From Candidatus Levybacteria bacterium RIFCSPLOWO2_01_FULL_38_21 (lineage in GTDB: Bacteria; Patescibacteriota; Microgenomatia; Levybacterales; UBA12049), in assembly GCA_001782475.1 (NCBI GenBank), contig MFOT01000024.1:42578-106577 (forward strand): 64,000 nucleotides of DNA. Direction: 5' to 3'. Under the pieces are notes generated by a model. That model did not search any database, was not told where the DNA came from, and worked only from the letters and a program-made list of their open reading frames with translations. Shown here in pieces: positions 6,912-64,000 of the stretch; the first letter of the stretch is position 1, and each line of letters begins with the position of its first letter. A program made the position numbers and the translations under genes.

Positions 6912-9900
6912 ATGAAGTTAAGCAAATTTTTGGCTGTCCCCGCAGTAACTTTTCTATTTTTTGTCTTCTTATCTGGCAGTGCCTATGCTTCTTTCTCTTA
7001 CTCATACGATTCCTCTCCGCCCTCCGCCGACCAGGTAGCTGATTCATTCTGCGCTGGCTCCATCCAGACTTGTTGGAACAGTTCGTCTGTTGGTGTAACA
7101 GATTGTGGAACTGCTTGTACCGGCGGTAACGCCTGGGAAAAGCATGTATATTCAGGCTGTTATTATGTAGCTTTTTTAGGTTATAAGGCATGGCTTCCAT
7201 TTGCATCCGCTACCTGCTCAACCGGGGATAAGTGTACGAGTAGTTGGCCTTATCTAAACGCTGGATATTGCGATTGCTCAGTCGGAGGCATATATAAAAC
7301 CTGCTGTGATACTACGACAGGAAGAGCTGATGGGGCTTGCGTGGCATATGCTGTTGATACCACAAATCCTCCATGGGAAGGTTATTGTCCTGCGGGAACA
7401 GCGACGGAGTTCTGTGGCTTCGGAGGCTATCCTGCCTGCGGAGATGCGGCTTGCGCAAAGTACGCCCCCCCTCCAGATTGTAATACTGGGGTTTCTTGTT
7501 CTGGAGCCTGCAGCGCGCCGGCAAATACCTGCTCTACAAATAATGGAACGCAAACAAGCTGTGTCTATACAGCCTACAGCGGAGGAGGATCCTGCACTCA
7601 AACAACTGCTCCCAACCAACAATGCACAGTTAATAATTGTTCTGCGGGATATACTTGCCAGAGTGGCATTTGTACGGCAGGACCGAATCCTCCTACTGCC
7701 GCAATCAACGGACCCACTTCCATTACACTTGGCCAATCAGGCAGCTTTACTGCAACCGCCAACCAAGACTCAACCAGTTCGCTTGCATCCGGAGAAATTT
7801 ATTGGTCGCCAACCGGTTCTCAATCCTGGACTCTTCTTAATCCCGTAGCTGCGCTTTCGGGCTCAACTGGGTCATTTTCCAGAACGTGGACTCCGACTGC
7901 TACCGGTACTTACTACGTAGTTGTCAACGCTTACAATGTAAATGGCCAACAATGCACAGGTAATCCTTTCGGGATTGATCCCGGCTGGGTTAATTGCGGA
8001 TCAAACGATGCTGTAACTGTCACAGTCACAACTGTAGCAGCAACCCCAACCCCAACTCCCACACCTGCCTCTTCATGCAATGCTGCGTGCATTGCAAGTG
8101 GTTATTATTATGGAATATGCCAAGGTGCATGCGGTGGAAACTATGATGGATCGCCTAGTCAATATGAATGTGCAAGTAATATTGGTGCACCTCTTTGCTG
8201 TTGTTCACGTGTGCCAGCCACTCCAACTCCAACCCCGACTGGCGCTCCAACTCCCACTCCAACTCGAGCTCCCTCAACATACGACATTTCTGGTACTGTT
8301 TGGGTAGATACCAATGGGAATGGGTTTAAGGACATATTAGAAGATGGATTCCAGAGCGCTCGCATAACCATAACCGGCGGTGCTTTTAGGAATACAGACA
8401 ACTCTGGATTTTACCTTTTTTCAAGTCTAGCTTCCGGAACATATACAATTACTCTTACTGTACCTTCTGGCTATATCTTAACCACTTCAAATCCTGTCAC
8501 CAGAACCCTCCCGAACAATGCCACAGCTAATTTTGGGATACAACCCCTATCAACCATCTCTGGAACTGTATTTGTGGACACTAATGGGAGTGGGGCTAAG
8601 GACACAGGAGAACCGGGATACAGCGGGGCTACCCTAACCGGACCCGGCGGTGAGACTGATACTACAGGCGCCAGTGGATCTTACGGTTTTCCAGGTCTAG
8701 CTTCCGGAACCTATACAATTACTCTTACTGTACCTTCTGGCTATATCTTAACCACTTCAAATCCTGTCACCAGAACCCTCCCGCCCGATGCCACAGCTAA
8801 TTTTGGGATAAGATTCAACAAGCCAGACCTGGTTGTCTCAAATCTTAGTGTCCAGTCGGTTGCCGCAGGCCCGATAACACCAAGAGATGGCAGTAGCTTT
8901 GATACCAATGGCGGCTCGGGCGCAAGTTGGTCAAATCCAACCTATGCTCAGACTTCCAATAGCCAGCGCGCCTCTGTTTCACTGGACGGTAATCCCAGTT
9001 CCCGTTATCTTAAGGCTCAAGGCTTTGGTTTTAACATTCTACCCGGTTCTACCATCAATGGTATTCTCGTTGAGGTAGAACGCAGGGCCGAAGAAGAAGG
9101 CTGGGGCGGCAATCCCAGAATAGTAGATGATGTCATCAGACTTGTCAAAGCCGATGGAACAATTGGCGGAAGTAACAGAGCAGGCAGTAGTTACTGGCCA
9201 GAATCGGATGCTTATACAAGCTATGGCTCAGGTACCTACCTGTGGGTCCTAACCTGGACACCGGCCGATATCAATAATTCCAATTTTGGGGTGGCAGTCT
9301 CGGCCAGGAATGAGGGTGATGACGCAATTGCATACATTGACCATATCCGTATCACGGTGTATTTAGCTTCCGAAGCAGGAGAGTCGTTAGAAGCAGTCTT
9401 TACCTTAAAAAATAACAGTTCTATTACCACGCCACCCGGGGTTAATTTTAGGATTGATCTTTGGCCGGACCGCACCAGCTCTCCCAATCTTGGAGAACTA
9501 AGTGATTGTACCCCGACCCCTTGTAAGATAGACCAAACAGAAATGGCCGCCAATGAACAGAGATCCGTGACTATACCTTTCACCGCTCCCTTAACCGCTG
9601 GAACAAAGACGGTCCAAATTTTGGCTGATTCGCCGGACGTCATTGACGAAATGGAGGAGTTAACTAATAATAGGATATCTAAAATCTACTTTGTTACTGC
9701 ACCCCCAACATACACAATTTCTGGAAATGTATTTGTAGACGCCGATAAAAATCGGCTCAAGAATGGAGGGGAGACAAACTACACAGGCGCAATCACTATT
9801 TCCTCAACAGAAGGAACTGTATCTGCTCCCTCTGGTACTGGGGTTTACACTGTAGACGGTTTAATAGAAGGAACATATACAATTTCTTACACAGATCTTC

Positions 9901-61585: not shown

Positions 61586-61657
61586 TGGGCACGGATAGAA
61601 TCGAACTATCCACCTCTTCTTTATCAGAGAAGCGTTCTACCAATGAACTACGTGCCC
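61586..61657 (-). tRNA. tRNA-Ile (anticodon GAU)
   Basis: GGGCACG-TA-GTTC-ATTGGTA-GAAC-G-CTTCT-CTGATAA-AGAAG-AGGTG-GATAG-TTCGATT-CTATC-CGTGCCC-A forms a canonical cloverleaf; CCA is not encoded. Confidence 0.8.
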
Positions 61658-61890
61658 AAAATTTGCTTTAAAAGCTCTCTTCCTTTTCCGCTTTTCAAAA
61701 ATCTTTCCCTACGACTTGCCCCTAATTTTGTATTATATGTCTCCTTATAAATTAACTCAAACGGTCCAGCCTGGCTCGTATATTTAGTTTGACCGTTATT
61801 ATGTTCAGCAATTCTCCTGTTTAGATTATTTGTCGAACCGGTATAATGCCTACCGTTCTTCAAGCTTTTCAAAACATAAACGTACCACAT
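61648..61890 (-). CDS. GIY-YIG nuclease domain protein (stand-alone URI-domain endonuclease)
   Basis: MWYVYVLKSLKNGRHYTGSTNNLNRRIAEHNNG covers the GIY..YIG, Arg and Glu/Asn catalytic motifs. The ATG lies 6 nt after the breakpoint of the tRNA-like 5' fragment. Confidence 0.65.
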   Translation of the reverse strand: MWYVYVLKSLKNGRHYTGSTNNLNRRIAEHNNGQTKYTSQAGPFELIYKETYNTKLGASRRERFLKSGKGRELLKQILGT

Positions 61891-62445: not shown

Positions 62446-62578
62446 AAATCTTAATAAGACCTATGATCCCAGCAATTATTCCGCCAAAAATAGCTATATT
62501 TTTGAGTTTTTCAGTAAAACTTGGCTGTCCCTCTTTCATAATTTTTAATTCTAAGCTTTGAATTCTAAATTCTATTAG

Positions 62579-62651
62579 AGGCGCGAAGGGGACTTGCACC
62601 CCTGAATGGCTGTTCTGCAGACAGCTGTGTTAGCTACTTCACCACCGCGCC
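62579..62651 (-). tRNA. tRNA-Cys (anticodon GCA)
   Basis: GGCGCGG-TG-GTGAAGTAGCTAACAC-A-GCTGT-CTGCAGA-ACAGC-CATTC-AGGGG-TGCAAGT-CCCCT-TCGCGCC-T. U73 discriminator and G7-U66 are typical of tRNA-Cys; CCA is not encoded. Confidence 0.7.
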
Positions 62652-62764
62652 ACGTTACAATTTGCTTTGCAAATTTACGTGGCTGGAACGTTTTCGCCAA
62701 CAGCGAATTACGTTCCGCCAATATAGAACCAAGTATACCAAAAAGCTTTGATTCTTGCCAACAA

Positions 62765-62795
62765 AAAATCCCTCACCAATTTGGTGAGGGATTTT
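62765..62795 (-). terminator. rho-independent terminator downstream of the 16S rRNA gene
   Basis: Minus strand reads AAAATCCCTCACC-AAATT-GGTGAGGGATTTT followed by TTGTTGG. Confidence 0.5.
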
Positions 62796-63283
62796 AATCT
62801 TAACGACCAAGAAGTGGTAGGAAAACTATTGAATAGAATTCGTCTCGCCCTAAGTATTAACGGGCTAACCAAGCGCTATTCACTCCCGCTTTTGAGCGGA
62901 ATTCGCTTGTGGCCATTACACTTTGTTCCAACTATTAACATTTCACTTTTAACAATTAACAAAAGTTAACTGTAAATTGTTACTGGTTAATTGTTAGTTA
63001 GGTGTCTTCTCTCAATCTAAACTCTATTCCCTCATAAATCTGAAGTTTTGAATTTAGAAAGGAGGTGATCCATCCCCAGCTTCGGCTAGGGATACCTTGT
63101 TACGACTTAAGCCTCATCGCCGATTTTAGACTCCCCCTCACCTTTGTCAACGATAAGCTTTGAAACTCCCATCGTAGAGAGCCGAAGGCTCCTTGCCAGG
63201 CTTTCCCTTCGGTAAATTCAAATGTCTTTCTAAACAAAGGTGAGGGGTTCGTCTACCACCGACTTTGCTGCCTTGACGGGCGG

Positions 63284-64000
63284 ATTTCGATAACTTGGGT
63301 TGTTTCGAGTTCCCACTAGACAAGCGGTTTTCCCGCATCTAGCGAGCCCCTGTTCATCTGTGATTTTAACTGTCGAATCTTCTTATATCCTTCATTACTT
63401 TTATGTTCTCCATTCTTTACCATTAAAGCGATTCGCCGAAAGAGTAAATAATTTTTAAGCTTTTTGCTATGAAGCTGGTTCTTATCAAAAAAAGGTATTA
63501 TTTTTTCATGTAAATCTTTTTGAGCAGTTACGCCAAATCTGTAACAATTTTTTTGATTTGCACGATATTCCTTTTGATAATATACTCCACCGCAATCAAA
63601 AAACTTCTGAACTTTCTTGAGTAATGGAAGTTCGTCTTCCCGAAGTTTTATGAAAAAGTGCATTTCTACTCGAGATTTATGAGTTCTGTTTGGAACTCTA
63701 GTCGCTACATAAAAACACCCTTCTCCATCAGTTAATCCTACGATATAATCATCAGATAAACGATTAGGTTTTTCCCTTCCCCCGCTAAGCGGGGTACTAT
63801 GGATCTGCTGACTTCTCTTCTTCAAGTTCATCTACCTTGAGAATAGATAAACAATTACCCAATTGTCAAGAAGAGATCTCCTAAGGTCACTTACCAAACA
63901 ATTCCTGGCATCCTAATTAGACTTTTTATATGTTCTTCCCTTAGACACACCTGATTAAGGTCGAACGTCTATTTTTTATTAGGCTGTCATTTGCTTCAGG
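63284..64000 (-). mobile_element. 16S rRNA intron (probably group I) inserted near E. coli position ~1400, continuing beyond the window
   Basis: The expected TGTGTACA following CCGCCCGTCA is replaced by more than 700 nt of non-rRNA sequence that contains a LAGLIDADG ORF. Confidence 0.6.
63316..63831 (-). CDS. LAGLIDADG homing endonuclease encoded within the 16S intron
   Basis: DYIVGLTDGEGCFYV is a single LAGLIDADG motif in a 171-aa protein (homodimer type). Confidence 0.75.
   Translation of the reverse strand: MNLKKRSQQIHSTPLSGGREKPNRLSDDYIVGLTDGEGCFYVATRVPNRTHKSRVEMHFFIKLREDELPLLKKVQKFFDCGGVYYQKEYRANQKNCYRFGVTAQKDLHEKIIPFFDKNQLHSKKLKNYLLFRRIALMVKNGEHKSNEGYKKIRQLKSQMNRGSLDAGKPLV

Follow-up and report, generated by a model that had tools for sequence, protein, structure and literature searches.

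The stretch of DNA analysed here (64,000 nucleotides (nt) of contig MFOT01000024.1, assembly GCA_001782475.1, positions 42,578 to 106,577; hereafter the window) ends inside a 16S ribosomal RNA (rRNA) gene that is interrupted by an insert encoding a LAGLIDADG homing endonuclease (LHE), and the question this locus raises is what kind of element divides the gene and whether it moves. The analysis confirmed that a 16S rRNA gene, of which the window contains the 3' portion, is split at the decoding centre by a group II intron that encodes a homing endonuclease. The fuller reading, which is very probably correct, is that this intron is mobile and IIC-like in build, with a single-motif LAGLIDADG gene in its domain IV, lying between A1398 and C1399 (Escherichia coli numbering) in a host of the Microgenomates group of the candidate phyla radiation (CPR). 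All features described below are on the minus strand, and coordinates are window positions unless another contig is named.

The 3' exon (63058-63283) was delimited by sequence and spliced alignment and covers the 16S rRNA from E. coli C1399 up to its 3' terminus, including the anti-Shine-Dalgarno sequence CCTCC. Read from 63283 to 63058 it begins CCGCCCGTCA, and its end is given as GGATCACCTCCTTT, also AAGTCGTAACAAGGTATCCCTAGCCGAAGCTGGGGATGGATCACCTCCTTT. The full insert was recovered from a public contig, L001 (ENA ERZ4903055), which reaches 630 nt further than the window and is 99.95% identical to it across 10,685 nt, with the first 5,181 nt identical. In L001 the 16S 5' exon occupies positions 1-525, matches the Rfam bacterial small subunit (SSU) rRNA model from position 861 to ~1390 with 486 bits, and terminates ...CGGGTCTTGTACACA. 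The insert follows at 526-1347 (822 nt, window-equivalent 64105-63284), with 717 of the 822 nt inside the window (63284-64000), and the 3' exon starts at L001 position 1348, which is window position 63283. When spliced in silico, the two exons aligned colinearly to rrsH of E. coli through the junction, the 3' exon corresponding to rrsH 1399-1542, and this alignment set the insertion point between A1398 and C1399 with a 1-nt ambiguity (C). Splicing in silico and alignment to rrsH were used to validate the 3' exon because Rfam did not recognise this 226-nt piece alone as SSU rRNA, even at E<=10. A preliminary description of this DNA had read 63058-63283 as colinear with bacterial 16S and had proposed an intron of more than 700 nt near position ~1400 that continues beyond the window edge, and these claims stood; placement by a 16S covariance model, which it had suggested, succeeded for the 5' exon in L001 and failed for the 3' exon alone. 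The 171-residue product of the open reading frame (ORF) in the insert is matched exactly in 13 public contigs.

The identity of the insert as a group II intron comes from comparison with its relatives. Through the ORF product 80 related loci were gathered, and both exon motifs could be located in 72 of the 90 loci that were fetched; in these 72 the distance from the end of the ORF to CCGCCCGTC is ~60-80 nt, and GTAC[A/T]CA closes the 5' exon. The last ~70 nt of 53 distinct introns were aligned for domains V and VI (alignment A1), and the 5' 330-400 nt of 48 introns were folded with RNAalifold into a consensus for domains I-III. Domain V is a 35-nt hairpin (63312-63346) in which a 2-nt bulge separates a lower helix of 10 bp from an upper one of 4 bp, capped by a GAAAA loop. 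Its CGC catalytic triad (63344-63342 in the window) was found in 53/53 introns, as was the 2-nt bulge (UC, UU, AC or AU), and a G.U wobble was found in 52/53; the helix is 99.3% paired and 7 of its pairs show compensatory changes. The upper helix of 4 bp with a 5-nt loop differs from the arrangement of 5 bp with a GNRA tetraloop. After a 3-nt J5/6 linker (AAC in the window intron and in 42/53) comes domain VI (63287-63308), in which all 7 pairs show compensatory changes and the bulged adenosine (63291), the eighth nucleotide from the intron 3' end, is invariant (53/53). The intron ends AAU at 63284, and AAU is the ending in 51/53. Jointly, domains V and VI were paired in 98.6% of 1113 cells, with compensatory changes in 14 of 21 pairs (slid controls, 31-41%).

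The upstream domains gave the same result. The consensus of domains I-III holds 64 pairs, and 54 of these show compensatory changes. They include the basal stem and internal helices of domain I, whose 3' part lies in the window (63881-64000; full domain window-equivalent 64092-63881), and the helix of domain II (63814-63876; alifold columns 381-389/437-445). The J2/3 linker and domain III (AGUCAGCAGAUCCAUAGUA-hairpin-GAAGG; 63774-63812) fall within a match to the Rfam model RF01998 (group-II-D1D4-1, covering D2-D3) at 63851-63773, which scored 38.2 bits against a gathering score of 35, and related loci also score above the gathering score with this model. The domain III stem covaries, and the motif AGUCAGC..CAUAGUA..GAAGG was found in every family member. 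The ribozyme is small (~400 nt when domain IV is left out), and this, taken together with its CGC triad and its domain III sequence, suggests a IIC-like backbone.

The 5' splice site is fixed by pairing between intron and exon. Exon-binding site 1 (EBS1; UGUGU, 63945-63949), within the domain I loop sequence GGUGUGU, pairs with an intron-binding site 1 (IBS1) of ACACA, which is 16S 1394-1398 and the last five nucleotides of the 5' exon, and this places the splice site after A1398. Across the 48 introns 98.3% of cells in this pairing were paired, while slid controls gave 15-56%. At exon position 1396 the combinations with EBS1 were U-A in 24 introns, A-U in 20 and U-G in 4, with mismatches in 0/48; hosts with the exon sequence ACACA have introns with EBS1 UGUGU, and those with ACUCA have UGAGU or UGGGU.

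No reverse transcriptase gene was found in the intron, its only ORF being that of the LAGLIDADG protein. This ORF (63316-63831, 171 aa, ATG start) is intact. It carries a single motif, as had been claimed from the sequence at the outset, and it matched Pfam LAGLIDADG_1 (PF00961) as one domain over residues 30-134 (E=2.5e-20). The motif reads IVGLTDGEGCF, lines up with the GFT.GEG motifs in structures from the I-OnuI family, and has E37 as its predicted catalytic residue. There are 917 homologues at E<=1e-5, and the closest solved relatives are the fungal mitochondrial enzymes I-OnuI, I-LtrI and I-SmaMI (E ~1e-33). The protein aligns to each half of two-domain enzymes of the I-OnuI family with the acidic residue of GEG, E37, kept, and the endonuclease is presumably a homodimer. 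Its conserved protein core covers only about residues 25-163. The start codon (63831-63829) lies in distal domain II, the frame then runs through domains III and IV, and the TAG stop (63318-63316) lies inside the 3' strand of domain V. Because the ORF overlaps domains II-III and domain V, the N- and C-terminal tails of the protein are encoded by the ribozyme core, and 63316-63346 and 63774-63831 are under both RNA-structure and coding constraint.

An element of this kind would be expected to work at two levels. In RNA, the pre-16S transcript would run to its own terminator and the intron would fold into domains I-VI. EBS1 would pair with the last five exon nucleotides, ACACA, setting the 5' splice site ~8 nt upstream of the GUGYG-like pentamer, and domain V, with its CGC triad and 2-nt bulge, would catalyse 5' cleavage by either the bulged domain VI adenosine or water; the choice between branching and hydrolysis may fall either way. 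Ligation of the exons would then restore the universally conserved decoding-centre sequence ...GUACACA-CCGCCCGU... In DNA, the endonuclease would cut intron-less 16S alleles around the insertion site (...CTTGTACACACCGCCCGTCAAG...), and repair of the double-strand break would copy the intron into the cut allele (DNA homing).

Alleles of the kind that homing would use were found. The uninterrupted junction GTACACACCGCCCGTCAAGGCAGCAAAGTCGG was present in 116 metagenome contigs, the best of which are 93% identical to the spliced exons, and intron-less alleles are therefore common among close relatives. A second indication of movement is a metagenome contig of about 1 kb, L008 (ENA ERZ27254846, 1-1085), whose intron is 99.76% identical to that of the window, its 2 differences falling in the loop of domain VI. 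The exons around it are clearly different: in the 5' exon 45 of 205 nt are mismatched to the window population, and the 3' exon, in which helix 44 is short, parts from it after 37 nt. This pattern fits recent lateral transfer by homing, or may come from a chimeric contig.

The alternative that survives best is that the intron splices yet is immobile, with an ORF that is an inactive or maturase-only remnant inherited vertically. Compared with the Levybacteria loci L011 and L012 the intron is 86% identical and the exons are 93% identical, as vertical descent predicts, and 14/53 such insertions surveyed in CPR bacteria have no ORF (PMC11270868). However, an immobile remnant does not agree with an intact ORF that retains the LAGLIDADG acidic residue, with the 917 intact homologues, with a near-identical intron in the divergent 16S background of L008, or with the intron-less alleles common in close relatives, and this alternative is considered unlikely.

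A further alternative is that the insert is not spliced, but is either an intervening sequence excised by an RNase III-type activity, which would leave a fragmented 16S rRNA, or an expansion segment retained in it. Bacterial rRNAs with fragmenting intervening sequences are known, and their existence favours this alternative to some degree. Many CPR rRNA insertions are also without a recognisable ribozyme (PMC11270868), and the case for splicing is built on DNA sequence, which counts for the unspliced insert and against a spliced one. However, the insertion lies inside the universally conserved decoding-centre strand, between A1398 and C1399, and a ribozyme structure of ~400 nt has been kept by compensatory changes across divergent hosts, including the pairing with the exon, which would be purposeless without splicing. 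Splicing is thus favoured, and the conserved ribozyme and the need to restore the 1390-1410 sequence suggest that it occurs; an unspliced insert is very improbable. The preliminary description had named retention of the insert in mature rRNA as the outcome that would overturn it, and for the 822-nt insert the decoding-centre site, the ribozyme fold and the precise intron-less alleles speak strongly against this.

The last two alternatives can be discounted almost entirely. Group I introns are the usual carriers of LAGLIDADG genes, are numerous in CPR 16S genes at other sites (PMC11270868) and occur elsewhere in the 16S gene of one relative (L147), but the group I model RF00028 had no match in the window or L001 at permissive thresholds, the D2-D3 match to RF01998 was above the gathering score, and the covariation of domains V/VI and of EBS1 with IBS1 speaks for group II, so that a group I identity is refuted in practice and with it the P1-P9 fold that had been proposed as a check. 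A metagenome assembly artefact, in which a 16S fragment was joined to unrelated DNA, might be suspected since breaks in the contigs of this locus tend to fall within the 16S gene, but at least 9 ENA and JGI samples independently yielded assemblies with this exon-intron-exon order, which was also found in the 72 of 90 fetched loci with both exon motifs, from many CPR genomes.

Several observations nevertheless weigh against the reading of a mobile, spliced IIC-like intron. One group concerns the 5' end, where GUGYG does not stand directly at the splice site. The window intron starts CAAUAAAU, followed by GCGCG, which puts the 5' splice site ~8 nt upstream of the GUGYG-like motif. Across the family there is an A/U-rich variable linker of 6-10 nt, then a degenerate pentamer NNGYG, then the domain I stem, so that the single strand before this stem is 11-15 nt in 47/48 introns compared to 5 nt in the canonical form, and the first intron nucleotide is variable. 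Canonical lariat chemistry is uncertain because the GUGYG equivalent is degenerate and displaced by the linker and the first nucleotide varies. The Rfam model for domains V/VI (RF00029) found no match at E<=10 in a 1.5-kb search, and a search of seven locus copies at E<=0.1 was likewise without a match. A second group concerns source material and function. All of the 5' exon and the intron's first 105 nt are beyond the window edge and were taken from L001, which belongs to the same population; L008, a metagenome contig, is 1 kb long, and chimeric assembly is possible for it; and the activity and target site of the endonuclease are predictions. I-ShaI, the one CPR LHE tested biochemically, was considered as the enzyme of the 1398 site and rejected, since it comes from a 23S group I intron.

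The departures can be compared with known systems. The canonical IIC intron of Oceanobacillus iheyensis (O.i.I1) is similar in having a ribozyme of ~400 nt outside domain IV and the CGC triad, and the J2/3-domain III sequence of the window intron, AGAAGUCAGCAGA..CAUAGUA..GAAGG, presumably resembles that of O.i.I1 closely. Canonical IIC introns differ in encoding a reverse transcriptase/maturase, in having GUGYG at the splice site and in inserting after terminator hairpins or attC sites, whereas the target here is a conserved rRNA sequence in place of a terminator hairpin. Fungal mitochondrial rRNA introns of class IIB1, which as summarised in PMC4424553 have insertions at the 5' terminus in addition to LAGLIDADG ORFs (Toor and Zimmerly 2002; Li et al. 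2011; Mullineux et al. 2010), likewise combine a group II ribozyme with an LHE in an rRNA gene. However, their LHEs mostly have two motifs and the branch-point adenosine is usually lost with the 5' insertion, whereas the window intron has a IIC-like backbone, a one-motif LHE and an invariant bulged adenosine.

The closest analogue outside CPR bacteria is the rns-1396 (S1396) family (Liu et al. 2026, PMC13190283). Its introns have a IIC backbone with a 5'-terminal linker, lack EBS2 and hold an LHE with one motif in domain IV; that paper credits the first find, in Thiomargarita, to Salman et al. 2012. The hosts of the family are Gammaproteobacteria (Thiotrichaceae) together with one Saccharimonadota entry (PMC13190283). 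The window intron resembles this family in the IIC-like backbone, the single-motif LHE in domain IV, the lack of an EBS2 and the use of the same conserved 16S stretch, and its 5' end matches the '5'-terminal linker' variant described for group II introns. However, rns-1396 introns insert between ...GUACA and CACCGC and have an EBS1 of ...UGUAC (Table S4 of PMC13190283), whereas the window intron lies between ...GUACACA and CCGCCC, 2 nt downstream, with EBS1 UGUGU, a comparison made through the description in that table. The window locus is thus outside the rns-1396 site definition, and the S1398 and S1396 groups are close analogues and possibly relatives.

Within CPR bacteria the class itself has been described. 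A survey of CPR rRNA insertions found group-II-intron-like insertions only at 16S ~1400 (site 16IS9), and among 53 of these 39 encode LAGLIDADG proteins and 0 a reverse transcriptase (Tsurumaki et al. 2024, J Bacteriol, PMC11270868). The window locus shares with this class the CPR host clade, the 16S site, an Rfam group II signal, one LAGLIDADG_1 domain as well as the lack of a reverse transcriptase, and it is a member of the 16IS9 class with no essential difference. The same intron type was also seen outside CPR bacteria, in genomes labelled Omnitrophota (L022, a 40-kb contig, and proteins P0099 and P0101), at the same site, with the same domains V/VI and an LHE 55% identical. In the 2026 survey of group II introns with LHEs the bacterial members are almost only from Thiotrichaceae (PMC13190283). 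It is possible, though at present rather doubtful, that the CPR S1398 introns are a lineage separate from the S1396 introns of Thiomargarita, far more numerous, and reaching into Omnitrophota-labelled genomes.

The 3' exon has two peculiarities of its own, both of which the preliminary description had noticed and both of which proved real. The first is an insertion of 95 nt at the tip of 16S helix 44 (63144-63238), defined by comparison with relatives; neither the closest relatives lacking the intron nor the Levyibacteriota locus L012 have it. In these relatives helix 44 is shorter than that of E. coli and the 3' exon is ~126 nt. Its fold lengthens the helix by a long perfect stem whose end is branched (-53.1 kcal/mol, z -5.6). 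A BLAST search of it against the window and all fetched loci returned only itself, so it shows no sign of being a repeated or mobile element, and in one other genome (L017) the tip of helix 44 also carries an insertion, unrelated to this one. In position the insertion corresponds to the eukaryotic expansion segment ES12. The insertion is lineage-specific, and in mature rRNA it may be retained, excised or fragmenting. The second peculiarity is the loop of helix 45 (63081-63084), which by sequence and rrsH alignment is CGAA where E. coli has the near-universal GGAA (1516-1519; G1516 to C), and since all close Microgenomates relatives have CGAA this is a lineage trait.

The closest loci are labelled Candidatus Levyibacteriota or Levybacteria, with ORF identities of 74-86% (L012 85%, L013 74%) and exons ~93% identical, and the samples with the locus include the Rifle aquifer. 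To judge from its 16S sequence, the host is a Microgenomates-group CPR bacterium near Ca. Levybacteria (~93% 16S identity). As had been claimed, the 16S 3' end is followed by a terminator and tRNA-Cys, and not by an internal transcribed spacer and 23S: no large subunit or 5S rRNA was found at Rfam gathering score within the 64-kb window, and no 23S gene lies in the 63 kb after the 16S gene. A spacer of 245 nt follows the 16S gene, and an intrinsic-terminator-like hairpin of 12-13 bp with a U run lies at 62763-62793 (-22.8 kcal/mol, z -5.6). A consensus terminator scan missed this hairpin and folding confirmed it; the terminator parts of several Rfam sRNA models also align there. Beyond it are a candidate sigma-70-like promoter, TTGGCA-18-TATACT with TG, ahead of tRNA-Cys (62732-62761; a consensus match), tRNA-Cys (GCA) itself (62578-62651; ARAGORN, Rfam tRNA model 53.8 bits) and tRNA-Ile(GAU) (61586-61657; ARAGORN). 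Seven relatives with a complete 16S and 3-9 kb of downstream sequence also have tRNAs and no 23S after the 16S, so that unlinked 16S and 23S genes are a lineage trait, and unlinked rRNA genes have already been documented for Patescibacteria (bioRxiv 10.1101/705046).

Some further observations were made in the surrounding DNA and in the related loci. Within the spacer, 60-150 nt past the 16S 3' end, a conserved motif (GATTGAGAGAAGACACCTAA and variants) is present in the window (62960-63010) and in L147, L110, L113, L109 and L188, and the motif is a candidate 3' strand for a processing stem. Just upstream of tRNA-Ile(GAU), and overlapping it by 10 nt, is an 80-aa stand-alone GIY-YIG domain ORF (61648-61890), which is called as a GIY-YIG gene in contig L004. 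A thymidylate synthase gene is split in L001, and because the same gene is intact in the window the split is a variant of the L001 assembly only. Many related loci (L011 at ~2185-2915, L014, L020, L022, L023, L145 and L124) have a second insertion of ~200-790 nt after AAGTCGT (E. coli ~1498), which is absent from the window; in L011, L014 and L020 it holds another ORF, and that of L011 had no Rfam match at the gathering threshold. The closest relative that is intron-less at 1398, L147, has its group I intron (RF00028, 51 bits) at 8951-9215.

Since the element, its site, its protein, the host clade and the unlinked rRNA arrangement have all been published, the novelty of this locus is low; it is real and well formed, ordinary for its clade, and not a new kind of element. 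What it adds lies in particulars, namely the precise junction, the pairing of EBS1, the combination of a 5' linker with a retained branch adenosine, and the ORF overlapping domains II-III and V. It is also a clean and well-conserved case of a group II ribozyme whose reverse transcriptase has given way to a DNA homing endonuclease, and the host whose decoding centre it occupies is a bacterium with a reduced genome. Introns of this kind lengthen 16S genes and break assemblies, as all 13 contigs with the exact ORF are short or end in the 16S gene, and because they defeat primers spanning 1392-1406 the organisms are missed in amplicon surveys; these points and the swap of the reverse transcriptase are already in the literature for this clade. 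In the rather doubtful reading of the CPR S1398 introns as a separate lineage, their combination of a 5' linker, a variable first nucleotide and an invariant branch adenosine would call for an as yet uncharacterised geometry of the first step, in which the lariat carries a 5' tail or cleavage is hydrolytic and the adenosine serves some other purpose, and near-identical introns in divergent 16S backgrounds would mean that homing between CPR species is ongoing.

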